Under the pieces are notes generated by a model. It worked only from the letters and a program-made list of their open reading frames with translations, had not been told where the DNA came from and ran no database searches. A stretch of DNA of 20,000 bases from Rhizaria sp. SCN 62-66. Lineage: Eukaryota. Position numbers and translations under genes: made by a program. The stretch lies in NCBI GenBank assembly GCA_001724265.1, contig MEDY01000128.1, forward strand, positions 48,860-68,859, in the 5' to 3' direction. Below are positions 905-20,000 of the stretch, piece after piece (position 1 is the stretch's first letter; the number at the start of each line of letters is the position of its first letter).

Positions 905-2842
905 TCATGTCATGACAGCGTTGTTGTTGCCGCTCCCCGCGTCACTCATCGGGACACCCCCGCTCGCGCCCGCATCCGCCCCCGCGCCGGCAGCAGCAGC
1001 GGCGGCGGCACCGGCGGCGGCGCCGGCCTGGTTGACGCACACGTTGTAATGCGCGGCTGCTGGCCTGCCGCAGCAGCCGCAGCAGCCGCAGCGGGGCGCG
1101 CCCGCCTCGGCGACCATGGGAGGCACACGCACGGTGTCGACGTGGCGCACGCCGCCGCGCACGTTGCGCCGGAAGCGGTCGCGCCCGGTCGCGCTGGACT
1201 GGAAGTGCGCGGCCAGCGCCGCCGCGAGCGCCAGACGCCGCCCGGGCCCCGCGGCGGGCGTCTCCAGCAGCAGGCGCAGCAGCGCGAGCGCAGTGGCCAG
1301 CGGCATGCCCGCGACGTTGACCAGATACGTCTTGAGCGACTTAACGGCGTACGAGGAGCGCACGACGACGGCGTTGCCGAAGTCGGAGCGCAGCAGCGTG
1401 GGCGCCGCGCTCTGCCCGTCGAGCAGCGGCAGGCTCGCAGCCGTCGCGAGGGCACGAGGCCCGCTGCCCGCAACGCCTGAGGCCGCGGTGCCGACTGTGG
1501 TCGAGGCGCCGGTGCGCGCGGCCATGGCCAGCTCGGCCTCGCTGACGGGCGGGAAGTCGATGCTCGCGCCCAGCTCGAGCGCGTCCTTGCGGTGCTCGTA
1601 ATAGTACTTGATGTCGCCAAGCATCTGGGCCGAGACGGCCGCGCGCTGCTGCGGCGTCTCACGGTCCTCCGGCTTGGTTTTGAGCTGCTGGTAGCGCCAC
1701 ACGGGGTCGTGCTCGCGGTCATCGAGGCACAAGTCCCGCAGCGCGCCCATGCGCTCCGCGGCCGCCTCGTCGTCCTCGACCTCGGTGTCCGAGTCGCAGC
1801 AGCCCACGTCGGGCCCGTACATGGGCGGGATCAGCGGGATCGCGGGCGTCAGCGGCGCGTCGAAAGGCAGCAGCCGCGCGCGGTCGCCTGCCGCGAGCTT
1901 AGGGATGATGCACGGCCCGAAGACCTGCGGCCCCGCCAGCGCGTCGAGCTCGTTCGTCTCGCACATGTTGCCCCACTTGGAGCGCAGGTCCATCACCGAG
2001 AACCCACCCAGCCAGGGCGCGAACCGCGCGTCGCGCTTGACGCGGCTGAAAAGCGTGTTGCCGCATTGCGCCACGGTCAGCGCGGCCGTCAGCCCGCGGT
2101 CCGCCATGTCCGTCCCGATCACCGTCACGGCGTCCGTCAGCACGGCCTCATGGTGCGGCGTCCAGTCGCTGCCCTTGAGCGCGGCCGCGCGCTTCCCGCG
2201 CAGCGACGTGAGGAACTTGCCGTGCGCCGTCTCGTCCGCGGTGAGCCGCACAGAGGACGAGCCGAGGCGGCTGTCGCCGATGACGGCCCCCGCAAGCACC
2301 GGGGCCGCCGTCGACAGGCCGCCTACAAGGGGCGCAGCGGCGGCCGCCCCAGCAGGGGTCGCGGGCGCAGCGGCCGCGGGGGCGGCGGTGGGAGCGCTGG
2401 GGGCGGCGGCGGCAGCGGCGGGACTAGAGCTGGAGTTGAGGAGGCGGGCGAGTGCCTCCGCCTCCTGCTCGGCCTCGGCACTAGACGCGGCAGCAGCTGT
2501 GGGCTCGGGCTTCGCGGCGGCGGACTCGAGCTTGACCAGGGCAGCGTCGGCCGTCGCGGTGACCGCGTCCGCGTCGTCGGTCATTGCTGCAGCAGCGGCG
2601 CTATCATTCGCAGCAGCGGAGCCGGGCGCCTAAAACTTGACAGTGACGTCGCCGTCGGCGGCGGCAGCGGGCTGAGAGGCAAGGGCGGCCTTGCGGAGGG
2701 CAAGGCGCTCCTTGAGGGAGAGCATAGCCGACGGCGCGGCAGCAGTCGCCGCGTCGGCAGTGGCAGCGGAGGTGTTGGTGTCGTCGTCGTTCATGGTGTT
2801 GTCGGCAACGGGGGAATCCGCCTTCTCGGTAGGGGGCTGCAT
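905..2842 (-). CDS. Ala-rich protein with a Myb/SANT (telobox-like) domain and C-terminal Cys/His cluster; contains an in-frame TAG at 2632-2630
   Basis: ORFs 2630..3013 and 905..2584 share a frame and are joined by TAG plus 15 sense codons (TVKF*APGSAAANDSAAAAAM). GC-rich coding style runs to ~2840. Start is ATG 2842 or ATG 2794 (aacaccATG context). Stop is TGA at 907-905. Confidence 0.75.
1964..2164 (-). other. Myb/SANT-like domain resembling the telobox class (TRF/TRB-type)
   Basis: WTPHHEAVLTDAV...RDARFAPWLGGFSVMDLRSKWGNM resembles the telobox pattern WTxEE..L..GV...D..F...L..RS.VDLKDKWRNM; divergent. Confidence 0.55.
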
Positions 2843-3448
2843 GCGAGGAGAAAAGCACCAAGAAAAAAGTGCGATGCAAGACGATGTGTTGTTGTGTTGT
2901 GGGTTGGCTCTGAGAGAGACAATTAGAGAGGTACGCGAACGGAGAGAAATTGATAGGAAAAGTGGTGAGTCTAGGGATGTCTGGGTAGAGCCACACAGAT
3001 GAGTTGAACACATGTTGTTTCAGGCACACGCGAAAAATTAGATGGAAAACCAGGAAAAACATAAATTTGTAAGATCAACGACGGAATCAGGCCACACGTG
3101 ATGGATGTAATCGAGAAGTCGAAGGCTGGGCGCGAAGACGAACTCGATCGCGAGCGACCGGAGATTTTTTGCGAACTCGACTGACCAACGTCTCACGACT
3201 GGGAGTTGATCTTTGAGCCGATCTACCTCTGCATTATATCTGTAAACTAGAATTAAACCTCCGCAGTCTAGCACTTAATTGCGGTTTTGTATAGTTATAT
3301 TTAATTGTTTTTTCAAAATCTGCCGTCTTACCTGCCCCCGCTCCCCTCGAATCTTTCCATTCGACTCCCCAACTTGAAATGCCTCGTGCCACCTCCACGC
3401 CGCTCCTTCGTCCCCCGTTCCTTCCACAACGCAGCCCCGCCTGCCACC
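2843..3448. promoter_or_regulatory. Divergent (head-to-head) intergenic region, probable bidirectional promoter and 5' UTRs
   Basis: Lies between the minus-strand gene start (~2842) and the plus-strand ATG at 3449. AT-rich core at ~3230-3320, with pyrimidine-rich leaders on each sense strand. Confidence 0.5.
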
Positions 3449-6049
3449 ATGCGTCTCACTGACGTCATTGGCTGCTCCCCGCCGACCCGCGAGGGCTTAG
3501 CTTATTATACCCCGCCCACAGCCACCACTTCCTCGTCCTCGTCTTCAGAGGCATCTTCAAACTACTCAAGCAACTCCCCGAGTGCCAGCTTCCCCTCACC
3601 CGCAGCCTCGAGCGCCGGCCCCCACGGCTCCTACGCCGCTGAGCTTGCCGCGTTTGCCGCCGCCCCGCTGCACTCGTTCCCGTGCAGCGCGCCCCGCCAC
3701 GCCGGCGCGACCACGGTCACGCTGCCGGCCCTGCTGTGCAGGCCGCTCGTGGCCGTGCCCGCGGGTGCCTCCGTGCTGTTGCTGTGCGCGACCACGCTCG
3801 ACACGCTCGCCGTGCTGCCGGGCCGCAGCGGGCACCAGATTGTCTCGCTCGCCTTCTCGCCCCTTACGCCGCTCCCCCCGCCTCAAACTATGGCCGACAC
3901 TGCTGCGGCTGCAACGGCGACAAAGCCTGAGGCAGCGGATAACGCTGCTCCCCAGCAGCAGACGCACGACGTGCTGCTGTATGCGGGCGAGTCTGGCGTT
4001 GACGCCGGCGTTCTCGTCTTCAGCCTGTCCCTGCTGGGCCCCGCCGTGGCGCTCTACGCGATGCGCCCTCCCTCGCCACAGTCCTTCGTCGCGGCGGCGG
4101 CGGCCGCGGCGGCCAGAGTCGCGCTCTCCCAGCGCGCCAGCTCCAGCAACAGCAGCACTACGACCGCCTCTGCAACTCCTGCGGGAGCGACCCTGGCCGG
4201 CGCAGTCGCCGCCGCCGTGACCGCCGTGGCACACCTAGTGGGCGACGCCGAGGCCGAGTCCGCGGCCGAGTCCGTGGCCGTGGCGGTGCTGCAGCCCGCG
4301 ACCGTGGGCACCGTCGCGCCCTCGCCCTGCGGCCGCTGGTTGCTTGCCGCCAGCAACACCGGCACGGCGCTGTGGGCCCTCGCCACCCCCACCACCACAA
4401 GCACCGCTAACGCGGGCCTGAGCACTGTGATGGAGAGCTCGAGCTCGGGCGCAAGTGTGAGCGCGAATGACGTCGATGCCGGTGCAGTTGCTGTTGCTGG
4501 GGATATGGTGACTGTGAGCAGCGCTGTTGCGTCGATGATTCACTACAATAACAACATCGCCCTCTCGCAGCCACATCATCAGCAGAGGATCAACTCAGAA
4601 CATTGCGAGAGTGAGCGAGCGTGCAAGCGCGAGCGCAAGCGGCGGCAGCGGCAGCGCCGGCGGCAGCAGCGGCAGCGGCTGCGGCAGCTTGTCTGGGACT
4701 GGGCCTCGGCCTCAGTCCTTACTCTGACCCGCCACCCCACGCTGCCGGACGCCGACACCACGCTCGCGCTCGCCGCGGCGGCCGCGCCGGCGGCTGCGGA
4801 GGCTGTCGCGGCATATCTTTCGAGCCCTGGTGATTACGCCGTGAGAAGTGTCAATACCGGTGCGAACACTGACGCCGACGGCAGTGCGCCGTGTTTGCTG
4901 CTAGCCTCGGCGGCGGCGGGGGTCGTGGCCGTGGCGGCCCGCCCGCCGCCGCCGCTGGCGCTGGCATGGTCTCAGTGCGGCAGCTATTACGCTCACAGCC
5001 ACTTGACTGGCGGGGCGAGCGTGGTATCGGTTGCCGAGGTCTCGCCGCGGGCGCTGCTGCTGGCATCCGCTGTACACGGTGACACTGAGGGCAAGAGCAC
5101 AGCAGCTTGTCAGAGCGACGATGATGTGTTAGTGGCGGTTCCCGTTGCTGTCGAGCTACTTACAAGTCTAAGTACCCTCTGGCAGAAGGCGAACCCATAC
5201 GCCCCTGGCTGCTCACAGTCACCCTTAGAGCTTCAGAAGACCCTTACAGAGGCGATCACGCGTGCCGCCGCACTTACATCTGCTGACAACGACAATAAGA
5301 ACAGGAGCAAGAGTAAGGGTGCTAAACGCCAAGATGGTGACGACGATGAGAATGAGAGCGGCACTGTGCTGTCCGCGTCGCTGCTGCTGACTCTGTCTCA
5401 CCCGAACCCCGCAAACCCGATGCCTCTCCTGCATCCTGGCACGAACAGGGCCAAAGCTCAGAGCGACAGTGGCAGTGCTAGAGCCAGTGCGAGTGCGTGT
5501 GCGAGGACGTATGACGAGGTGTCGTTGTCGCTACTGCTGTCTCTCTTGCCAGCCCTACTTCTGCCCCTGACTACTTCATACAGCAATGACCGCAATATCA
5601 GTGGTTGCGGCAGTGGTGGGCTGGCTGTGACCGTGAGCACCCCAGTCAGGCTTGGCTTGCACAAGAACATCTTGATCCCCTCTATCGCTTGGTTGCCGAC
5701 TGCAAACGCACACTCTCCCAGCAACACGGCCACTGACGTGAACAATACCAATGCGAGTGCGTGTGCGAGTGGTAAAGAGCTATGGGCGGGCCCCGAGTGC
5801 TACTTTCTCACCGCCACGGGCGTCATTCTGCTGCTGCGGCCGAAGCTTTTCCCCCCGCTGCACACCATCATCGCCGCAAGCTCGAGCCCAAGCAGCATCA
5901 CGCGCTCAGCCACCGCCCCAGCCACGGCGACCGACGCTGACACGGCGAGGGCGGCTGCGGCAGCGTTCGCCCGCGTGTTTGCAGCAGACCAGGCTGACGT
6001 GCTGTTGCCAACCATGGCGACAGGCTTTGCCGCTGCGTTCAATTCGACG
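3449..6049 (+). CDS. MAPKBP1: WDR62/MAPKBP1-like WD40 protein, exon 1
   Basis: ATG 3449 in gccaccATG Kozak context. MRLTDVIG..., LVAVPAGASVLLL, IVSLAFSP and LLYAGESG..GVLVFSL match the WDR62/MAPKBP1 N-terminus as recalled (LEKVLG / VAYPAGCVVVL / ITALAFSPDG / LVTGESGH..AVRVWDV). Ends at a phase-0 donor ACG|GTACGT. Confidence 0.8.
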
Positions 6050-6199
6050 GTACGTCATTGTAGTCATTCTCTCAGAAATACTAGGATTATTTGACTATAA
6101 TTCATTGAAACGTGCGTTTTATAATTTTGTTTGCATTATTGTTTCATCTTACTCACATCATACCTTGTATCTCCATTGCATTTTAAATCATATGCGTAG
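6050..6199 (+). other. Spliceosomal intron 1 (150 nt, phase 0)
   Basis: GTACGT...GCGTAG and AT-rich; removal joins the 3305..6094 frame to the 6308..7957 frame exactly. Confidence 0.9.
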
Positions 6200-7949
6200 A
6201 TTCTTCCCACTCTCGGTCTGCCTGCAATCACAGCCTCCACTGCTGCCGGCCTCAACTCCACCACAAACGGGCTTGCGTCAGCGACTACCACCAGCGGCAG
6301 CGTCACTTTGCGGCTGACTTGGGAGGTCGAGAAGTGGGTCAGTGCCAAGATCGACCACGGTCTCTACTTACACGCCTCGCAGCTCCCTTACACCTCATAC
6401 CCGCCCCCCTTAGTGCAGTCCCCAGCCCCCGCCGGCGGCCCGCCCCAGTCAAACGCGAGCGCGAGTGCAGGCACGGGGCCCGCGAGTGCGAGCCCTGCTG
6501 GCGCGGCGACCCCTCTGTGTCTACTCACGGTCACGGGCCGCGGCGGCCGCGTGCGCCTCTTCCATACACACACGCTGCGCCACGTCACGGCCATCACCGC
6601 GCTCCCGCCCACGGGCGCCGCCGCGGGCACCGCCGCCGCGGCCGCGGACCTGGCCGGCGCGGCGGCCGCGATCGGCGCCATCGCCACGCGCACCGCGGGC
6701 GCCGACGTGCGCTACTACGACGCCGTCGACAACACGGACCCGAGGTTCCGCCGGCTGCTGCGCAAGCACGCGCAGGAGCAGCAGGAGCTCCTGAACGGCG
6801 CGAGCGGCGGCGGCGGCGCTGCTGCTGGCGACGGTGCGGACTCGCGCGGCGCCATTGGGGGCGTGGCCCCCGTCCGCGGCGGGATCGACTACCGCAGCAG
6901 CGGCCGCTATGTGCGCCGCATGGAGCGCTACGAGGCCAAGATGCGCGCCGCCGGGTTCCCGCACGGCCCGCCGACCCGGGCCAGCTTCGTCACGCTCACG
7001 GTCCCTGCGCCAAAGCTGCCCGTGTGCGTCACACTGCGCCTGTCGGCGGACGGCAGGAGCCTGGCGATGCACTTCGCGGACCGGTCGCTGCTCACGGTTG
7101 CTTTGACGTTTCCGGACGCGGCCTACGCAAACGGCGCGAGTTCCAGCGCGACCGCAAGCGCGAATGCGAGCGGCGCGAGTCTGGGTCACCTGAGTAGTCG
7201 CGTCGGCAGCGGCAGCACGCCACGGGACGCCAAGGGCGCGGCCACCGCCAAGCCCTTTGTCCCCAGCGTCGCCTTCACCGGGTACCGGCCTGCGGTGCGC
7301 GGATCCGTGTCGGCGCTCAGGGTATCGACCGTGTACCCGCACAACCCGGCCGCGGAGTCGATGGCGGGGTTCAACTACACCGCACGGCTGCAGCAGCGCG
7401 CGGCCGCGGCGGACCACCCGCGAGCCCACGCGTACGCGGCCGAGCTGGCGGCCAAGCTCGCCGCGCAGGGCGAGCCGCTGGCGGCGCAGTGCGCGCGCGA
7501 GCAGCGCGGCACGCTGGCGGTGACCGTGGTCGGTACCGAGGGTGTGGTGCGCGTGTTCGCGCTCAGGCCCAGTGGGGCGGGGCACGCCAGCGACTGTGAG
7601 CGCAACTACTTCCCGCGCAGTAAGGAGGAGCGGGACAGCGGGACGTACGACCCGTTTCCGCTCACTAACAAGAGCAAAGCTCGCACTGGCGGTGCTGGCG
7701 GCGCGAAGCCTGAGAGCGACTGTGAGCGCAAGGTGAGCGACTGTGAGCAACTCTCACCATCACTGTTGCAGTCGCAGTCTGAGGCGCGGTTCCGCCGCAG
7801 TGTTGCGCTGGGGGACCGTGAGCAGGCCGAGCTGCGGGACCAGCAGTGGCAGCAGGTCTCGTGGGGGCCCATTGACCCGGTGCCTGTGGACCGCGTGCAC
7901 GCGCTCTTCGCGGTCCGCACCGGCATGCTCAACCAGTACTCGACGCCAG
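6200..7949 (+). CDS. MAPKBP1: WDR62/MAPKBP1-like WD40 protein, exon 2
   Basis: Open from 6200 (ILPTLG...). Motifs VEKWV, GRVRLFHTHTLRHV and LRLSADGRSLAMHFADRSLL parallel family motifs (LDKWV, GTVRLFNPSNLHFL, LTFDP...LSCVYNDHSI). Confidence 0.82.
7589..7748 (+). repeat. Dispersed direct repeat AGCGACTGTGAGC x3 (SDCE peptide)
   Basis: Copies at 7589, 7715 and 7736; the first two share 17 bp. Confidence 0.85.
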
Positions 7950-8101
7950 GTACTTAGACGCGAACACCATTTTCACACTGACACTTCTCATTCTCGATGG
8001 CTTTTTGATTTATGATGATATTTTTGTTCTGGATTATCAATGTCTTTATCTAACATTATCCCTGTGTTTTTGTTCTTTTATTTGATTTGTTATCGTTTTA
8101 G
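7950..8101 (+). other. Spliceosomal intron 2 (152 nt, phase 1)
   Basis: CAG|GTACTT...TTTTAG|G, with CTAAC branch candidate at 8050-8054 and a T-rich tract. Splicing restores the frame into ORF 8257..14454. Confidence 0.92.
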
Positions 8102-11100
8102 GTCCCGCTGCCGTCAAGGGCACTCAGGTTATCACGGCTGCCTCTGCCTCTGCATACGCCGCTGCCACGACCGATGGCAGCAAAGCAGGTGTTTCTAGTT
8201 TTCCCGTCCACGGCGCTCAACATTCAGCCGTTGCCGCTATCGACGGAAGCACTAATGTGCAGCAACTGCAGTCTGCGCCGAAGACGACGTGTCTCGTCGG
8301 CGCTGCGACGCCCGCAGTCTCGTTCTGGCAAAACAGCACTAACGCCGACGACAACGACAGTATTAGCGACATCAGTGACACCGATAGCGGCACCGATTAT
8401 GACGACGAAGACGAAGCTGACAACGCTGGCGGCGTCAGTCTTAAGCGCGAGCGCAAGTTGCTGCAGCAGCAACACAACGACAGGCAAGAGGGCAAGAGCA
8501 ACAGCAATATGAGCTTTAACTGGGACGACGAAGCGACGTACACTGACAATAACGATGAGTCAAAGAGCAACATCTCTCACAAGAATCTCACCAACAGCGC
8601 CAGCAACGCTAGTTTTGTTGGCAATGTTTTGAACTCGATGACCGCGAGCCTCGTCATGCGCGGCGTTGTCACCGGCGGCGCCCGCAGTGCCGTTGACTCC
8701 TCTACCGTGACTGCAGCGAAGCCGGCCGCTGATCACAGCGACATTGTGACGGCGATCGCCGACGGCGACATCGCCAGCGTCCACGGCGGCGTGGCGGCCG
8801 ACGCGGCGTACAACAGCTGGGACGCGCTGCAGCAAGAGGGCGCGCTGGCATGGGCGCTGTGGGGGACCGACGTCGACGCCGTGAGCACCATCACCACGAC
8901 GGTCACCACGCGCACCAACTGCACCGCCATCTCGACGTCGTCGTCCTCACACGCCACCAGCAGCAACAACACCGGTGACAGCACCCAGAAGAGCGACTCT
9001 AGCGGTGGCGGCGCGAGCGGTGCGGGCAGCCAGGTGACCGTGAGCACGCCGACGGCGACGACGACCGTGAGCGAGCGCGACGGGCTCCACGTGCGCACCA
9101 AGGTCGTCACAGGCAACGCCGCGATCGAGAACGACTGGACCACCGCGAACCTGCCCCCCATCACGGACGCGGCCGCTCCGACTCCCAACCCGGCGAGTCA
9201 CACTGGTGCCGGCCGTGGCGGTGCTGCTGCGGCGGCCACGCCCCAGCCTGGGTTTGCGCTGCCGCCGACAGCGCTCACCGCATTAGTGCCTCCCAAAGCT
9301 AAGTCGCAAAGCACCTGCAAGAACAGCAGCGCGAGTGCGAATGCGAAGGGCAGTGATGGCGTCGGCGGGTACGGTGCGGCCGCGCACTGCGTCGCCATGA
9401 TCCAGGCCCTCAGCGACGGCGGGGTCGCGGACCCTTACTCGGCGCCCACTTACTCCGGCACGGCGCCGCACGCGAAGGGCCGCGGCGCGCGCGCGCTGGC
9501 TCCGTTAACCACGCTGCCTGCGGGCGCGAGCGTGCCGCTCGACGGCTCCCGCCATAACAGCATCGCGTTTGCCCACGGCAGCGACTCTAACGCCGGCACC
9601 AGCGACACCGCGTCTGGGTTCAACAGCGGCGCGCAGAGCGTGGGCGTGACCGTGGGCAGCACGCTGGCCGGCGTCGCGGTGGGCGACACCAAGGGCGACG
9701 TGCTGGTCATGGCGGCCGTTGCGCAGAGCCTGTTGCCGGCGGCCGTGTCGGCGCCCGCGGCCGAGCACGCGGTGACCACGACCGCTGGCGCCAGGGCCGC
9801 GGCCGAGGCCGAGGCGCGCACCGCGATTGCCGTCGCTCTCGCGTATGCCCGCGACTTACTCAACAAGAACAAGAACACCAGTGCAGGCAGTACCCGTGAC
9901 ACTCACAGTCTCAACATGGCCGTGCTGGAGCTGCTCGAGCGCGAACCGATGCTGCTGACGACCGGAGTAACTGTGAGCGCCAGCGCCCGCACCGGTGTGC
10001 TCACGGTCACCTCGCCCCACTCCGGCGGCTCCACTATGACTGTGAGCCACCTGTTCTCCGGGGTAACCGTGAGCACCGCGCACGGTGCCACCAAGGCGGC
10101 CCCCATCTGCCCGTACTACAGCTATTATCGGCCGACGCTGGCTCCGACGGCGCCCGCCGCGGTACGGTTGGCGTGCCACGCGCTCGCGCACACGCTTCTG
10201 TTCCCGGTCAAGACGCTGGGCGCGCACGAGGGCGCGGTGACCGCGCTGTCGTTCTTGCCGCCGCCCCCGGCCCCGCTGCCCACGGTCACAACCACAACGA
10301 CGACGACGACTACAACGACGACGACTACAACGACGACGACGACGACGACGACGTCTGGGACGCCAGCCGGCAACCACAGCGTTAGCGGCGTCAGCGGCGT
10401 CAACGAGGGCGGGCTCGTGCCACTGCCTTTCAGCCTCGGCCGCCGCCCCTGCCCCGGGCACTTGCTGACAGCCTCGCAGGACTCGCTGGTGCACGTCATC
10501 GACACGGGCGACCTGTACGGCCCTCCGCTGACCACGCTGCAGCCCGTCGGGCCCCTCGCCACCGTCACCGCGCTGGCCCCGCTCCTACCGCCCTCGAGCG
10601 CGCCGGCCGCGCTACTCAACGCCGGCCCCCGCGTCGTGGCCACGGGGCTGGACGGCAGCGTCACTCTGTGCCACCTGCCGCCCTTCACTGCGCTGCCGCC
10701 GCCCAACAGCGGAATGGCCTACGGTGGCGCGCCCTCTGGGGCGTTCTGCCCCCCGTTCCCGCCCGCCCTGTCGCTCCACACCGCCTCCGCCTCTGCTTCT
10801 GGCACTGGCTCTGGCGCCGGCGCCGGCGCGGGTCCGGGTGTTAGTGACCGCGTGTTCGCAGTGGCGGCACATCCTCTGGGCCGACTCGCGGTCACCGCGG
10901 GCGGCGTCGCGGCGGCCGACACGTGGCAGCTGCCCACGGCCACGGCCTCGGCCGCCGCGGCGAGCACCGGCATGCCCGCCGCGGTGGTCGGCGGCAAACC
11001 CGGCCCGCGCCTGTGGCTGCCGCTGGTCTCGGTCGTTGCCCGGCACGTCCGACGCGAGAACAGGCGCGAGGCGGCTAAGGGGCTGGCGAATAAGGGGTGC

Positions 11101-12692
11101 TTAGAGACGTCGAAGGGCGGGGTTAGGAAGAGCGTTACCAGTGGCCCCGGGACTGCTGCTGGTGACGCTGAGGTCATCACTCTTGACAGCACCGATGACA
11201 GCGACTCTGGCGCTGAGTTCGAGTCTGACGATGACTCTGCTTCCGACACTGATCGTGACAGTGACGACGACGACGGCGACGATGACGACGACGACGACGA
11301 TGACGACGATGATGAGGTCGAGTGGCGCCACGACTACCACACTGCCATTATCGCGCTCAAGCTTGCGCGGGACAACGACCAGCACAATCATCAAGTCAAG
11401 CTCGACAAACTCAACAAAACTAAGGCGAGCGCGACTGAGAAGACGGCCAAGAAGACTCGCATCGGTGACGACGATTACGACGAGTTTGCGTTCGACACAA
11501 GCACTCCGAGAGTCAACGACGCCGTTGCTGAGGCCGATACGGGCGGCAGCTTGACCGTGGTCGAGAGCGAGGCCACCAAGGCCGCCGTCGCCGCGCTGGC
11601 CGCGGTGGTGGCGCAGCGGCCAGCCCGCGCCCGCCCGCAGCCGCTGCTCTGCACGCACGCGCCGTCGCCGCTACACCGTTCGCGGCCGCCGCCCAACCTC
11701 GCCTCGCTCTCACTCCTCGCCAGCGGCGCGGCAGCAGGTGGCGGCGCGGTGACGGCCGCGGCCCGCGCCGCCGCCGCTGTGGCCGTGCCGTGCTGCGCGC
11801 TCACGGTAGCGCTCGACCCGTCGGGCTCGTGCCTGGCCGCGGCGCTCAGCGACGGCCGCGTCCGCCTGCTCGACACGACGACGGGCGCGACGCTCAGCGA
11901 GGCGCCCGCCGTGCACGGGTCACACGTGTCCGCGCTCGAGTTTGCGCCCGACTGCGCCGCGCTGCTCGCGGCGGGCGCGGACGGCGTCGTGGCGCAGTGG
12001 GCCCTCCCGCGCTGGCTGCGGCTGCGGCTGCGCGCCCGGCTCGGCCCGCTGCTGCGCGACGTGCGCGCGCAGGACGGCGCCGCGCTCGTCGCGCGCGTCG
12101 CGGCCGCCGCCGGGGTCTCCACGGCCGCGCTCACGCCTGCGCCGCACGCGAACACCAGCGCTCTCACCAGCCAGTCGGGCAGTAAGTGCGCTAGCGCGAA
12201 GAACGACGAGGATGATAACGACGATTTGATCACTGTTACGCCCGCGATGGCTCGCGCTCTCTGTCTTCCTGCTCACAGCAGCAGCGGGAGCAATGCGACG
12301 ATCACCGCGACCGCGCTGCGGTCTCGCCTGCGCTCTCTGAGCGTAGCCGCGACCGACGCCGACCTGATAGCGCTGCTGCTGCGGCCGGCCAAGGCGCCGC
12401 CGATGCTGTTGGTGCCGCCGCCGCGTGAGCAGCGACTGCCGGCGATGTCGCGGTACTACAAGCAGTGCCTCGACGAGCTGATGCAGATGCAGCGGCAGCA
12501 CCAGCAGCACATGCTTGAGCTAGAGCGGGAGCAGGAGCAGGAGCAGCAGGGGCTAGAGCTGGAGCACAAACAGTCGCAGCTGGTGCTCGAGCCCGAGACT
12601 GAGCCGGACGCTGACGCTGACGCTGACGCTGAGGCAGGTGATGACGCCGAGGCTGAAGCTGCTGACGCTGTTGAAATCGACGTCGATATTGG

Positions 12693-12724
<32 letters not shown>

Positions 12725-15700
12725 AAGCGAGCGACGACAGTCTCGACGGTGCTGACGGCGAAGACAACGATAACGAAGACAAGACCAACACTGGTACCAA
12801 CGGCGTCGCAGTCGACGATGATGATGTCGATATCGACATCTCTTTGTCTGACACTGGCAACGCCAGCAAGGACAGTGTCGCCGTCGATAACAGCAAGGCA
12901 ACTGGCTTCGTTCTTCGTCTCGCTGGTGTCAGCGCTCATGACCAGAGTGTAAGTACTCCGAGCAGGAATCTAAGTACCCCCGGCTCTGCCGTGAGCGGCC
13001 GCAAACCCTCCAGGTGGGCTGCCAACGCGGCGGGACAAGGCGGCGTCCCACTGTTTATTCCGCGCATCAACAACGCCGCTCTGTCCAGCACTTTCACGAA
13101 CAACGACACTGACAACGACAACGATGACAACGGGGTTAGTGGCAGCACGAGCCTGAAGTCTGACGTTGTCGTTAACGCGAAGAAGGCTGACGATAAGAGT
13201 GCGGTTTACAGCGTGAAGTCTGGTAAGACTGCACTGACTGCTGATGCTGATGCGAAGGACGACGCTGTTGTCAGCGGTGACAACGATCTTGGCTACGGAG
13301 ACCCGACGCAGCAGTACAACAACAAGTACACCAACAAGTTTGCGAACATCAAGCTGCACAATAACACCAGCAGCAAGAATAGCACGATCGATAAACACGC
13401 CGACGCCGACGCCGCCGATGACGACGATGATGGCGCGAGCTCGAGCACGAGCGCGTCCTTCCACCTCCGCATCGCTGACGCTGACGACGACGACGATGAC
13501 GGCGACTACGACAACGACGGCGACGATGACGCCCGCGGTCACTTGCGCAGCGGCGGCGTGGCGCGGGTTGGCACGGGCAGGCGCAGAGTCACCAGCGCGT
13601 CGCGACTGCAACGGGCCCCCGTCACCACCACGGCGTCCGCCGCGACCGCAGCCGCAGCCAGTGCGAGTGCGCTGAACAGCAACGCCAGTAGCGTGGACTC
13701 CAGTGGCGCCAGTGCCCGCGTCGTCAACAGCGCCGGCTCTGCTTCGACGACGAGCTCTCGCGACGCCTCCGCCGACGGCGGTGTCAAGCAGAGCGGCCTG
13801 ACTGCGCGGCGGCAGAAGCCCGTGTTGTTCCGCATGGAGTCGCCACTGGCCTCGGCCGCGACGCTGCGCCGCGCGGACCTGGGGCTGCAGCAGGCGCTGG
13901 CCGAGTACAACACCGCCATCACGACCGGCGCTGCGGCGGGCGGGAAATCGGGCCATATCCCCGCCGCGCCTACCGCTGCTGTCGGCGCCGCCCAGCCCGA
14001 CCCTCAGACTCAGCCCGCGCTTGGTAGCGCCGCTGCCGCTAACGCCGCTACCGCTAACGCCGCCGCTGCCGTGAGCGCCTTCGGCAGCGTCGTCAGCGTG
14101 GGCGGCGCCGCCGTGGTGCTGGCGCGGCAGCCGTCTCGTCGCAGCGCGCTGCGCCGCATTGGCTCCAGCCGCGCCGCCACGGGGCCGGTCGTCGCGACTG
14201 CGGCCGATAGCACGGCTGCGACTCAAGCGTTGGCCGCTGCGGCCACCGCGACTGAGGCGCCCAGTAGGACTGAGCCAGCGGCTGCGGCTGCGGCCGCGGC
14301 TGAGGCGGCTCCTGTGGCTCCTGTGGCTGCGGCTGCAGGCATGCCTGGGCTCAAGCGGCAGCCGTCGTTGCGCTCGTCATTCAGTGCTAGTTTCTACAAC
14401 AATCATAACGGCAGTAGTGCACTGAGCAGTTTCAACGCAAACGGAAGCAGCTAGAGCAGCTTTAACACACATAACAACAGCAGCAACACTGCTAGCGATA
14501 CTACGGATTCTTCTGCTACTACGACGGACTCCGCCACTGCAGCCGATGTCGCTGCTGTTGACGATGCTGCTGCGGGTGCTACCCCCGCTGTCGCGCTTGA
14601 TAGCGCTGGCACTGAGTCGAACACTGAGACAAAGGATGCTGATACTGCTGCTGCGACCACAGCGGCTGCGGACGAGATCGAGACGGAGACGAAGACTGAT
14701 GCCCAGACCACTCCCGCGCCCGCGACGGTGACTGCCCCCACGCGCACTGTGCTCAACAGCGCGATCGGTGGCGACAGCAGTGACAGCGACAGCGAACCCA
14801 CCGGCGTCGACCTCAGCAGTCTCATGGCTGCTCGCAACACGGGAGAGAGGAGCGATGCTGAGGCCGGCAGCAGCGACAGCGTTGGCGCCACAGATAAACC
14901 CGAGCCGACGACTGTTGTCATTGACGAAATCAACGACTACAAGAACGCCAACAACGTTCCCACCGGCGACGACATGGACGTCGAGGACGACTACAGCGAG
15001 TTCGAAGAGGAGGCCCTCGAGGGTCCTACGCCGGCCATCACTCCCTCGGCCTCCAACGCCAGCGGTCACCCTCATGGTGCGGTGACACCGCGGAAGCAGC
15101 AGAAACACGCTGCGACGCCCACCGCCGCGCACGGCCGCGGGAGCAGCAGCGCGGCGCACCTCAGAGGCGGCGGCGGCAGCGACAAGTTGGGTGTGCCGCC
15201 GGCGCAGAGTCCTGCCCACGGGCACTCTGCCCAGCACTCTGCTCACGGTCAGTTGAGCCCTGGCAGAGCTGCTAGACGCCAACTTGTCTTTGCTGCGACA
15301 GCGACAGCATCACCGCCTCGAAGCAACACCAGTGACGACGTGAACGACAGTGCGAAGGATAGCAACGCCGTCGCTATGACCGGCTCAAGCACTGCATCTG
15401 CGGCTGCGAGTTTGACTGGGAAGGAGAGTGCCGTGCGCCGCAGCGTTGTCACGCCGCTGCAAGGCACGCGCACTGTCGTTGTCGACTCGATGTTTCCCCC
15501 GCTGGCGCAGTCGCAGTCGCTCTCACAGTCGTTTACGCAATCGCAGCTTTCGCAGTCTCAGTCGTCGATGTCGCAGTCCCAGTCCCAGCTGCAGTCTTTG
15601 TTACAACAACAGCAAGAACAGCAGCTGCTGCTGCTCCAGTCACAACTGTCGCCCGCCGTCACTAGTGCGACCAGCGATGTAACGACTGCCGCTGCTCCTG

Positions 15701-17316
15701 CTGCCGAAAGTGCTGTTAACACTGCTGTTGGTGTTGGGGCTGGAGCTGCAGCGGGCTTGAACACCAACGCTGCTGCCAGCGGCGCCGTTGTGGTTCCTCG
15801 CTTGCCTCTCTCGCCCATCAAGCTCCAGCAACAGCAACTGCAGCAACAGCTGTTACAGCCAGCGCAGTTGCCCCGCAACAGGCCACTTTCTTCACAGCCG
15901 CAGTTCCAGCAACAGCAGCCACAACATCAGACCCAGACCGGCTTCGTGGTGACTGCAAGCCCCAGCTCCCGCCCCCGCAACTCCCCCGCTCACGGCCACT
16001 TCCTCCCAGCCCACGGTCAGTCCCCCGCCCACGGTCAGTCCCCCGCCCACGGTCAGTCCCCCGCCCACGGTCACTTCGCTCGCGGCCTCAGCGCCGTCAG
16101 CAGCCCGAGCTTCGGACGCCAGCCGACTCTGCGCCACTCGGCCAGCCTGAGCAGCACCGGCGCGAGCGGCGGGGGCGTGCCGGTGACCGCGCACGAGGCC
16201 GCGCTGACCGCGCTACAGGCCTCGCTTAAGGCCGCGCTAGACCTGCTCGCCGTCGCCGAGGCCGAGGCTGAGGCTGAGGCCGAGGCCGAGGCTGAGCAGC
16301 AGGAGCAGCAGCCGGACCCGGATGGCTTGGACGCGAACGACAGCTTTGCCAACGACGCCAGCGCGAGCCACGACGGGGGCGACGTGTTTGACCTCCGCAC
16401 CCGCGACGTGGGCCTCACAGGTCGCCCTCTCAGCACCCGGCACAGCGGCGGGCCCGCGGTGCAGCGGTCCGCAAGCGTCTCCGGGCTGGGCAGCCCCTCG
16501 GACGGGCCGACCGCCCCCGCGCTCAGCGCGCGCGAGCGGCTCGCGGCCGTCACGTCGCTCTACCAGGACACGTTCGCGCTGGTCCAGCAAGCGGTCACGG
16601 TCGCGACGGACAAGACGGAGCGCATCATGGTGCTGACCGCGCGCGGCAGCGGCAGCGGCAGCGACAGCAGCCGTGGCAACGGCAAGCGGTTCACCTACTC
16701 GAGTACGAGCAACACGAGCGCGCGCATCACTGGTGGCTTTGATGGCACGACTGCAACCGGCGGTGGCGCCGCTGTCGGTGGTGTTGCACCTCGTCCTGTG
16801 ATTGTGAACGCGAGTCCTCGCATCAGTCCAACAGGCGGCTTACCTTCGTCAGCAGGAGACCCGCATTCTGGTGTTGAGGCGAGTCCCCGCGTGCAATATC
16901 AGGGGCTGAGCGAGATGTTACGCCGCAGCAACAGTGTCACAAATACCAACAACAGTAAGCTACACGAGCTGAACATCAGCGAGTCTGGTGATTTTGCTGT
17001 CAATAATCCTGATGCTGCACCGAATCACACCACTAGTGCACGCTATACCGCTTTTAACGCTGCCGGTAGCGGTGACTTTGCGGGCGAGTTCGGCGCGGTT
17101 TATACTGGCGATTCAGGTGCGCAGAATGTGGACATCGATCCGATGGACGCATTGACAAGCCGCATTGCAGACATGGTGGCGGCCAAGCTTCAAGCACGAC
17201 AACTAAATGGCAGCAATATTACTACTCCGCTGTCAAGCACCCGAAACAGCGCGGGGCCTAACAACAGTGCGTTGATTGGTCACTCGAATCAGACCCCAAA
17301 TCAAAATCAAGGTTAA
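8102..17316 (+). CDS. MAPKBP1: WDR62/MAPKBP1-like WD40 protein, exon 3 (9.2 kb; in-frame TAG at 14452-14454)
   Basis: Contains VAVGDTKGDVLV, AHEGAVTALSF, LLTASQDSLVHVID and ALDPSGSCLAAALSDGRVRLLD...VSALEFAPDCAALLAAGADGVVAQWALP (family: SGDRMG, AHDSEILCL, LASASRDRLIHVLD, DPSGIYIATSCSDK...[20 protein letters not shown]), plus PSRWA. The frame continues 91 sense codons past the TAG into ORF 14728..17316 and ends TAA where AT-rich DNA begins. Spliced CDS is 13,566 nt (~4,521 aa). Confidence 0.8.
10288..10353 (+). repeat. Coding trinucleotide repeat (ACN)22, poly-Thr
   Basis: Mostly ACG with ACT/ACA interruptions; lies between two WD40 motifs. Confidence 0.95.
11263..11313 (+). repeat. Coding (GAY)n poly-Asp tract
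   Basis: GAC/GAT run with a single GGC interruption. Confidence 0.9.
12694..12723 (+). repeat. Perfect (GCT)10 poly-Ala microsatellite
   Basis: Directly visible. Confidence 0.95.
15982..16077 (+). repeat. 18-bp coding minisatellite (PAHGQS)n
   Basis: CCCGCCCACGGTCAGTCC-type units x3 flanked by PAHGHF variants; degenerate copies also at ~15205-15260. Confidence 0.92.
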
Positions 17317-18525
17317 GTGGCTGTTTGCAAAGGGTGATTATGATGCGGTTTATTAACATTGATTAAATATAATCCTACGTCAGAGAAGGTCTACTTGTTA
17401 CGTTAGAAATTTGAATAGTGTTTTAGAATATTTACTCTGGGAGCATCTGTAATACATATGAGCTTACATGTTTTCCTTCGTGAAGATGACAGAGTGATGA
17501 GTGATGTCTAATGATGTGGATATTACTCAGTATCATCTTCATATAATTTTTATTTCATCGTGTCACACGATGATACAATTAGCTTACGATGATACATGTA
17601 GCTCAAATCAACGTTCATCGTGTCAAAGTAGGTTCAAAATAGCATCGATATTGCGACTGTCTGGGCTGTATAATTGCGAGCGAATGCGACTTTTCCCCGT
17701 CGCACTCACTCAGCTTGAATTAACGGTCCCAGGCAGGCAGGTGATGATGCAAAGCGCTCAATTGGTATCTTAATTAGGTGACATGATCGTCTACATTCAT
17801 TTCTGTCACCACGAACACTCTTTGCTGTGCTGGCGATCTACATTTGACAAGAGTGTTGAAACCGCACAAAACCCTAATTACATATTTGTAAAAAGCTATG
17901 GGCAACCAGTCAAACCCGTTAACATTCCATTAGGGGGCGTTATGTAGAAGGTCGGGGCGTTGTGTATAAAATACATAATTATACATAATTGATACAAGAT
18001 AATGGCCATCTACATGATGAAACAGCTATAAAATTGCAATTTTACGATTGAATCCGCTTGTTCATCTGCATACATGAAAACGGACATTTCCGTTATCGTG
18101 CGGTTGTCTTGTGGGGCCTTTTCCTGTTGCTGCCCGGTGTGTCATAATAATTTTCGATATCTTCACTATACATCATACTTAATCCATAAACACTATCACC
18201 ACACAAAATCGCCGTCGTGTTTGTGCGCAAATGGTTAGCAATCTCACATTGTAGTTGCGCACTCTTGACACCCCCGTCCCTTCTGTTGGGGTTCTCAAAA
18301 TATCACAAGTGACTGGTGGTGATGTCATTTCGGAAGCGTCATCGATGAGTGCATGTAGTGGACTATGGCAACGCTAGATTGACAAATGTGACGACTGACA
18401 TCGTAGACTTATTAGTTTCATACGTATTTATTCAACGTAATATCCCACAGCTGCGCTAATTCCTTCCTGCTTCCCTTCTAATTCTCAAGATTTCCAGAAG
18501 GTTCCTTGGCACCGCTCTTGCCACA

Positions 18526-18943
18526 ATGAACCCCTCAACGTCGCTCTCCGCTGAGCTGCAGTCGTCTGATAGCGAACGACTAGGCCTTGCCGCAGACATG
18601 CCCCGCGCATCTTCGCTTGCAAGTCCCAGCTGCTCCGCCGTCCCTCGCCCCCATTTTGGCTCGGTCGACGCCCTTCGCACCGACCGTGACCGTCGGGCGT
18701 CCGCTGTTGCCGTCGACGTCTCTCCGAGTCCTTATCTCCTCGCCTCTAAGCCCCTTCCTATAGCAGACCTCCTTGCCGCCTCGGAGGTCTTTCCCGCACT
18801 GGCTCGCATTGCTGCGGATGATGAGTTGTCGCCCGACGCTCATTCTATCGGCCAGGAAACCTATTCAGATTCGGACAGCTGGGCCTCCGCGACTGGTGGG
18901 GGGAGGGGCATTGCCGCGATACAGCAGCCTGCTAGCACGAGTC
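18526..18943 (+). CDS. Hypothetical coiled-coil protein, exon 1 (Ser/Ala-rich)
   Basis: gccacaATG start, GC rise relative to the spacer, ends at a phase-1 donor C|GTACGT. Confidence 0.7.
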
Positions 18944-19116
18944 GTACGTTATTGTTCGCATTTACATGTTGACTTGCGATGACCGAATCGTCAAATAAAT
19001 AATCAAAGTGACCTGCTATTTTATAACATTTTTTTCTTCAAAGTTACCGTTCTAACTTAGTACTTGTACCTCACCATGTTTGATCTCGCTTGATTTTCTC
19101 CTTCTCTCTTTCATAG
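18944..19116 (+). other. Spliceosomal intron (173 nt, phase 1)
   Basis: GTACGT donor, CTAAC at 19052-19056 and a strong pyrimidine tract TTTTCTCCTTCTCTCTTTCATAG; the phase matches the long downstream frame. Confidence 0.85.
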
Positions 19117-20000
19117 AAATCAACAGAGATCGCGCGTAGCATCAAGAACGTATTGCGACTATTCAGAAGAAAATAGCCAGGGCGAGGTTGCACGTCGCAC
19201 ATCATGAAAGGTAGCTCGAAGTGGCTGATTGCAATCTTCTCTCGACCATTACGACGCTAACACCCCTGGACACGGAAGTTGAACGCGGCCGCGTTGCTGC
19301 TAAGAAGGCGGATGCTGAGCGAGAACTGGCATCCGCTCAAGCTAAGCTTGACAAGGCTAGGGCTGCGTTGGCGAAGGACAGGGCTGATTTGGCAATGGAA
19401 GAAGCTGAACATAAGATGGATGTCGCTAAAGCTCGAGTTGAGGCAAGCAAAGCAAAGCTCGACAAGACATCTAAGTCTGACATTGCGTATGCCGCAGCCA
19501 AAGCCCGGCACAAGACTGACGAAGTCGAGCTCGAAGTGGCCGAGAAGAAGCACTCACTAGCGCAGGCCAAGCACAATGAGGCGGATGCCAGGCTCAAAGT
19601 GGCTGATGCTGAACTCGGCGTTTCTCAAGCTAAATTAACATCTTCGAGCACCCTTGACGGGTCAGCACAAAAAGTTATCGGCGCGGCCGAGAGCAAATTG
19701 TTGGGTGCCAATGAGATGCTTATGTTGGCTAGAAGCGAACAAGGAAAGGCGGCCGGAAATCTAAATGCGGCTGAGACAAAGCTGCATGATGCGAAGGTGC
19801 AACTGAAGAAAACTAATAATGACACATCGCAAACACTTCTGACTCAAGCTCAAGCTAACCTTGCGGCGTTTGTCAAGGGTCAACCACAGATGTCGTGGAA
19901 CCAAGATACGTCCAAAGACTTTATCATTCTGGAGGCACCCTCGATCTTAGACAGTGGTGGCCACGTGGCGCGCTTTCCGTTCAGTGGCAAAGGTCTTGAT
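19117..20000 (+). CDS. Hypothetical coiled-coil protein, exon 2 (3'-truncated; in-frame TAGs at 19137 and 19212); absent from the ORF track
   Basis: My translation: QINRDRA*HQERIATIQKKIARARLHVAHHER*LEVADCNLL...ERELASAQAKLDKARAALAKDRADLAMEEAEHKMDVAKARVEASKAKL...RFPFSGKGLD. Ala/Lys/Glu heptad pattern; no TAA/TGA in frame to the window end. Confidence 0.78.

Follow-up and report, generated by a model that had tools for sequence, protein, structure and literature searches.

In-frame TAG codons and a possible UAG-only sense code in an uncultured GC-rich eukaryote

Can a eukaryote known from wastewater and bioreactor metagenomes decode UAG as sense and still end its genes at UAA and UGA? The question is raised by a 20,000-nucleotide (nt) stretch of contig MEDY01000128.1 (positions 48,860 to 68,859, hereafter the window), in which TAG triplets interrupt coding sequence in neighbouring genes on both strands. 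UAA and UAG are usually reassigned together, and nuclear codes that separate the two are rare. An earlier note on this DNA had proposed such a code from four TAGs, located at 2632-2630 on the reverse strand and at 14452-14454, 19137-19139 and 19212-19214 on the forward strand. All four are indeed present in the sequence. The first two lie in frame within genes, with coding score on both sides, whereas the in-frame position of the other two depends on a predicted splice. TAG is thus found inside the coding sequence of at least two genes, with frame and codon usage continuous through each. On this basis we consider it probable (about 0.6) that UAG is read as sense in this organism, with UAA and UGA remaining stops; decoding of this kind would involve a tRNA with anticodon CUA and an eRF1 that does not recognise UAG.

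TAG codons within coding sequence

The TAG at 14452-14454 lies in a Ser/Asn-rich tandem unit within the last exon of a giant gene on the forward strand. As modelled, this gene comprises exon 1 (3449-6049, from the first ATG at 3449), exon 2 (6200-7949, with coding score from base 6200) and exon 3 (8102-17316, ending with the TAA at 17314-17316). Between them are two putative introns, one of 150 nt (6050-6199; guanine-plus-cytosine (GC) content 0.31, GTACGT..TAG, phase 0) and one of 152 nt (7950-8101; GC 0.32, GTACTT..TAG, phase 1). The frames meet exactly over both introns, base 7949 and bases 8102-8103 forming one codon after which the frame of 8104 is kept. Added up, the exons have a length divisible by three, and the resulting coding sequence (3449-6049, 6200-7949 and 8102-17313) measures 13563 nt, or exactly 4521 codons. 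Exon 2 is without ATG for 240 codons and exon 3 for 135, yet coding score sets in with the first base of each. What appear to be three genes are, on this prediction, a single giant three-exon gene. The TGA at 6092-6094 and the TAG at 7955-7957 are accordingly placed within AT-rich GT..AG introns rather than at gene ends. If not intronic, the latter would count as a TAG terminator against a sense reading of UAG; given its intronic position, we rejected it as proof of TAG termination. Contigs of an unlabelled metagenome run (X4) cross both introns unspliced, as expected of DNA.

Within exon 3, the TAG is preceded by 2122 open codons and followed by 953 in one frame. Off frame, the window's confident coding sequence has 301 stops in 2 x 5315 codons (about 0.028 per codon), so that an open frame of 953 codons is not a product of chance. 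In each of the ten 30-codon windows from 14092 to 14902, the score is above zero for the gene frame and below zero for both others, and the 128 codons between this TAG and the next ATG have a coding score of 0.60, which leaves no room for a new gene start there. We also considered GT..AG spans around the TAG whose removal would keep the frame, against the local intron pattern (150-173 nt, GC 0.31-0.35, start GTAC[GT]T). Among the 70 such spans, none is AT-rich and none carries the local 5' splice motif.

The TAG at 2632-2630 is codon 71 of a 645-codon gene on the reverse strand, g2 (905-2842), whose translation runs from the ATG at 2842-2840 to the TGA at 907-905. It sits in a low-complexity linker between a conserved N-terminal motif and a conserved body. 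The 70 codons upstream of it score 0.52-0.54 in frame, as compared with -0.55 and -0.88 off frame, under a codon-usage model that, for the value of 0.52, was trained on the giant gene alone. This value equals the best in-frame windows elsewhere in g2, and a score of 0.5 is reached by none of the 102 off-frame and none of the 153 antisense windows of the gene. In all 20-codon windows around the TAG, only the gene frame has a positive score, those of the other two being negative, and coding signal persists throughout the 15 codons that separate it from the next methionine, Met87. GT..AG spans that would remove this TAG in frame number 49, none with the local 5' splice motif, and the only AT-rich one at either the g2 or the giant-gene TAG measures 18 nt (2647-2630).

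A homologue of g2, the 500-residue protein P0006, is uninterrupted and 47% identical over the body. The motif LSLKERLALRKAALA, which precedes the TAG in g2, has its counterpart in P0006 as LSLQEKLAARKAALA, nine residues from the start, and HMMER aligned query residues 40-428 in one stretch spanning the g2 TAG. The family is small: among 1.84 billion representative proteins, six were found at E <= 0.001, two of them the window's own pieces and four of them relatives. In the protein database, g2 exists as P0007 (70 residues) and P0005 (559 residues, from Met87), each on six contigs, a 203-kb contig being recorded for these pieces, and searches of that database found no fused form of the two. Standard-code gene calling thus splits genes at TAG, and the public proteome of this organism is therefore fragmented. 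The family, which further includes P0006, P0008, P0009 and P0010, is rare, unnamed and without Pfam match, and its members share the motifs PHHEA, RRDARF, PPMYGPD.G.CDSD.E, YY.HR and LKSLKTYL.

Across the 5315 codons assigned with confidence, in-frame stops comprise two TAG, no TAA and no TGA, whereas the other two frames of this DNA contain 204 TGA, 53 TAA and 44 TAG. With TGA the commonest stop off frame, it should likewise prevail among interruptions that stem from shifted or non-coding sequence. No frameshift was found in the giant gene and g2 (4521 + 645 codons). The visible gene ends are TAA (451-453), TGA (907-905) and TAA (17314-17316), and GC drops at each, in agreement with the earlier description of three non-TAG ends leading into AT-rich DNA. 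The absence of in-frame TAA is to be read against a strong bias towards GC at third codon positions (GC3), seen in CAA and CAG (33 vs. 150) as in GAA and GAG (15 vs. 153), under which fewer than one sense TAA would be expected in 5315 codons regardless. An in-frame TGA lies five codons past the TAA at 451-453 (to 468) and another seven codons past the TAA at 17314-17316 (to 17337). In non-coding DNA of the window, each such downstream TGA has a chance of about 0.136, and these triplets may be back-up stops or coincidence.

The TAGs recur in independent assemblies. Contigs of a bioreactor/wastewater metagenome run (X1) cover all four without any difference (record 2 carries the TAG at 2632-2630 and record 4 that at 14452-14454), and contigs of another such run from a different study (X3) cover those at 2630 and 14452, again with no differences (records 9 and 15). 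A contig from a JGI metagenome (L001) is 100% identical to the window over 955-3947, which includes the g2 TAG. These independent contigs rule out assembly error as the source of the TAGs. PolyA-RNA contigs from a further run (X5) are identical to the window at 2980-3257, between the divergent starts of g2 and the giant gene, and at 17435-17678, downstream of the giant-gene stop. Both segments are AT-rich and outside coding regions, and the contigs could represent untranslated regions or DNA carry-over in the RNA library.

The remaining two TAGs belong to a third gene on the forward strand, g6, for which we predict a first exon at 18526-18943 (with a weak coding score of 0.02, vs. -0.47 and -0.85 in the other frames), a 173-nt intron at 18944-19116 (GC 0.35, GTACGT, a pyrimidine tract, then CATAG; phase 1) and a second exon from 19117 that encodes a coiled coil and leaves the window at 20000. 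All three introns described here are predictions from sequence, and no intron joint was seen among the 15 joints listed. The TAGs at 19137-19139 and 19212-19214 are in frame only with the 18944-19116 splice, whose phase-1 junction leads into a long frame starting at 19215. TAG 19212 opens a repeat unit of which two further copies follow downstream, with a 16-nt match that begins at the second base of this TAG; the short repeat supports TAG 19212 alone and not TAG 19137. We regard both as probable in-frame TAGs.

g6 belongs to a family (P0011 and P0012) whose coiled coil leads into the conserved motif ARFPFSGKG and then an NTPase-like part with a P-loop (GPPGTGKS); Pfam hits on the family (AAA_16, nSTAND_NTPase5) were all below cut-offs. 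Several close variants lie on short metagenome contigs. Across 18010-19600, many short variant contigs occur in all four runs aligned to the window, at depths far above that of the organism's own contigs (e.g., 1310 vs. ~30-43 in X1), which points to a repeat or a multi-copy gene family in the region of g6.

As for the amino acid, the available hints come from repeats and disagree. TAG 14452 is aligned with CTG (Leu) in the Ser/Asn-rich tandem unit, whereas the partner codons of TAG 19212 in the g6 internal repeat are GAG and AGG (Glu and Arg). These partners conflict, and we dropped the naming of an amino acid for UAG.

Readings of UAG at this locus

We favour UAG as a sense codon because two robust and two probable TAGs occur in three genes with no frameshift, with identical sequence across assemblies and with gene ends other than TAG. 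Several observations weigh against this reading. The sites are few (two robust and at most four in 20 kb), and every one of them lies in low-complexity or coiled-coil sequence, with none at a conserved aligned residue. The proposal of the earlier note is supported in part. In g2, the TAG is opposite a gap in the low-complexity linker of the alignment with P0006, and the support from the N-terminal motif is modest, its score being equalled by 52 of 2000 shuffles once the Ala-rich composition is allowed for. In g6, the 24 codons between the two TAGs have no coding signal in any frame, the alignment with P0011 (58% identical over 266 columns) begins 10 residues after TAG 19212, and splicing to a second candidate acceptor at 19220-19221, which lacks a pyrimidine tract, would preserve the frame and make both TAGs intronic. 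That none of the interruptions is TAA or TGA holds for all 5315 codons, but with codon usage so rich in GC3, TAG is the product of 66-69% of single-base nonsense changes, and an all-TAG set is therefore weak evidence against nonsense mutations. Three of three visible gene ends are not TAG, a sample too small to exclude TAG termination. ARAGORN found no tRNA genes in the 20-kb window, eRF1 is not among its genes, and the eight polyA-RNA contigs of X5 among the matches listed reach neither any of the four TAGs nor a splice junction.

Under the standard code, the TAGs would be genuine stops: g2 would start at Met87 (ATG 2584), its upstream 70 codons being a former N-terminus or an upstream open reading frame, the giant protein would be cut at codon 3567 by a recent nonsense mutation, and g6 would be mis-modelled or a dead copy within a multi-copy family. 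The models of the gene callers agree with this, with P0005 starting at Met87 and P0007 a separate 70-residue frame, as do the mutational bias towards TAG, the many high-depth variant contigs at g6, as for a repeated family, and the location of all sites in disordered low-complexity sequence, where truncation is perhaps tolerated. It requires, however, that two or three adjoining genes each acquired a nonsense mutation independently and that each became fixed across studies, without a single frameshift in 4521 + 645 codons. It must also contend with coding signal for 953 codons past TAG 14452 and over the 15 codons from TAG 2632 to Met87, and with a g2 segment before the TAG that retains a motif in common with a homologue only 47% identical. 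Decay is thus disfavoured by the lack of frameshifts, the coding signal past the TAGs, their recurrence in neighbouring genes and their fixation across samples, and we regard the standard code as unlikely here. A shade less probable still is an ambiguous UAG that ends some genes and is efficiently read through within others, whether by termination that depends on context or by programmed readthrough on a wide scale. Ambiguous stop/sense codes are reported in other eukaryotes (PMC4967479; 10.1101/2022.04.12.488043), TAG is rare in frame (two in 5315 codons), and three visible gene ends leave space for TAG termination elsewhere; yet no gene in the window ends in TAG, and the base that follows the two robust TAGs differs (G and A).

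The TAGs could also be missing from the mRNA that is translated, having been edited or else spliced out with introns that are very short or unconventional. Candidate spans do exist, namely the 18-nt GT..AG span at 2647-2630, the other frame-keeping spans around the sites and, in g6, a longer intron ending at 19221 that takes out both TAGs with the frame kept, and the X5 RNA contigs listed do not reach the sites. Against this, no span at TAG 14452 or TAG 2632 matches the local introns in length, GC and GTAC[GT]T start, the frame is the same on either side of all four TAGs, which is not required of introns, and the coding score stays high on the approach to the sites and across them, all of which makes removal at the RNA level quite improbable. 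Least probable, and rejected here, is a coupled code in which UAA and UAG are both sense and UGA is the sole stop, in-frame TAA being too rare to see in a GC3-rich genome. The downstream TGAs at both TAA ends would fit such a code, and the rarity of A-ending codons makes the lack of in-frame TAA compatible with it. However, the only two in-frame TAAs are located exactly where coding composition ends, and a sense TAA used less than once per 5000 codons, yet sitting only at two of three gene ends, is far less likely than a chance TGA.

Comparison with known nuclear codes

The earlier note cited Iotanema spirale and a sainouroid rhizarian as nuclear codes in which UAG alone has become sense, but its list was incomplete. 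In Iotanema spirale (Fornicata), UAG encodes Gln and is sparingly used, with UAA and UGA as stops, according to an analysis of 3064 transcriptome contigs (PMC5304391). The window resembles this case most closely in sparing use: only UAG is found in frame, UAA and UGA end genes, and the codon is scarce. It differs in the scale of the evidence, four sites in three genes here vs. a systematic analysis of 3064 contigs there. In the sainouroid rhizarian, exLh, UAG encodes Leu, with 384 in-frame UAGs in 71 genes and, as terminators, exclusively UAA (56) or UGA (15), as given in the same paper (PMC5304391). Here too UAG would be the only reassigned stop, and one TAG aligns with CTG (Leu); in contrast to exLh, TAG is far sparser (2-4 in ~5600 codons) and another TAG aligns with GAG and AGG. 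Further uncoupled cases, as listed in PMC11687900, include Scotinosphaera (UAG as Ser), Protocruzia tuzeti and several phyllopharyngean ciliates (Leu, Gln), as well as one ciliate with UAA as Lys and UAG as Glu. What the window would have in common with these is that UAG and UAA are decoded differently. Coupled codes reading both UAA and UAG as Gln are reported in the same source for ulvophytes, Hexamita, Streblomastix and Amoeboaphelidium (PMC11687900). In-frame TAG in nuclear genes is shared with them, but TAA is found here at two gene ends and never in frame.

If true, a UAG-only code in this organism would thus be a further case of a rare known type, for which contigs and polyA RNA are already in public runs. 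A new uncoupled case would add a natural experiment on stop-codon capture, involving the arrival of a tRNA(CUA), the loss of UAG recognition by eRF1 and low initial use, and a GC-rich organism that still uses the codon little would look like one caught early in such a capture. Searches of one literature library, supplementary files excluded, listed no paper on a wastewater eukaryote with such a code.

It is tempting to speculate, at somewhat less than even odds, that a UAG-only sense code arose here independently, outside the ciliates, in a GC-rich and deeply divergent lineage of eukaryotes met repeatedly in wastewater and bioreactors. A GC of 0.63 and AT-rich introns of 150-173 nt seem unlike those of a ciliate, and a ciliate origin was set aside on this composition and intron size.

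Source organism and neighbouring sequence

The window, judged by its gene content, is eukaryotic nuclear DNA, because bases 1-453 are the 3' end of a gene for eIF3 subunit d, coding for its last 150 residues. This gene end, on the forward strand, matches Pfam PF05091 (E 1.5e-36, profile positions 409-532 of 532) with a GC3 of 0.92. The overall GC of 0.63 masks an alternation of stretches at 0.6-0.85 with AT-rich stretches at 0.30-0.45. Words sampled from bases 10001-20000 were found at fractions of 0.92, 0.78 and 0.78 in X1, X2 and X3, all bioreactor/wastewater metagenome runs, and of 0.64 in the unlabelled X4. Given the presence of the window's words in wastewater/bioreactor metagenome contigs, the organism is therefore uncultured. 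Its proteins are nearly without relatives in public data, as seen from the four relatives of g2 and from the eIF3d fragment, for which a protein search gave one longer relative at 34% identity.

Other searches added little to its placement, and protein-cluster look-ups yielded no informative names. For the eIF3d fragment, a protein atlas confirmed the eIF3d family with no further placement of the lineage, and a metagenome scan yielded no relative. The metagenome scan with the g2/P0006 alignment returned L001 as its sole match, wholly inside the window and with no added DNA, and scans of genome contigs and viral contigs gave no further DNA of the organism. No Rfam family matched the window. A first Pfam pass assigned a family to one of seven window proteins, after which weak WD40 and NTPase signals alone were obtained. 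A polyA-RNA contig of X5 differs from the eIF3d exon at 15 of 284 bases (148-431), so that expression of a related strain or species in the activated-sludge sample seems likely.

For the giant protein, Pfam found no family on exons 1 and 2. In the translation of exon 3, a weak WD40 signal is located near residues 1225-1324 (PF00400, 29.1 bits, cut-off 27), other beta-propeller families being below their Pfam cut-offs. Most of this protein consists of Ala/Ser/Thr-rich low-complexity sequence, which includes a run of 24 Thr.

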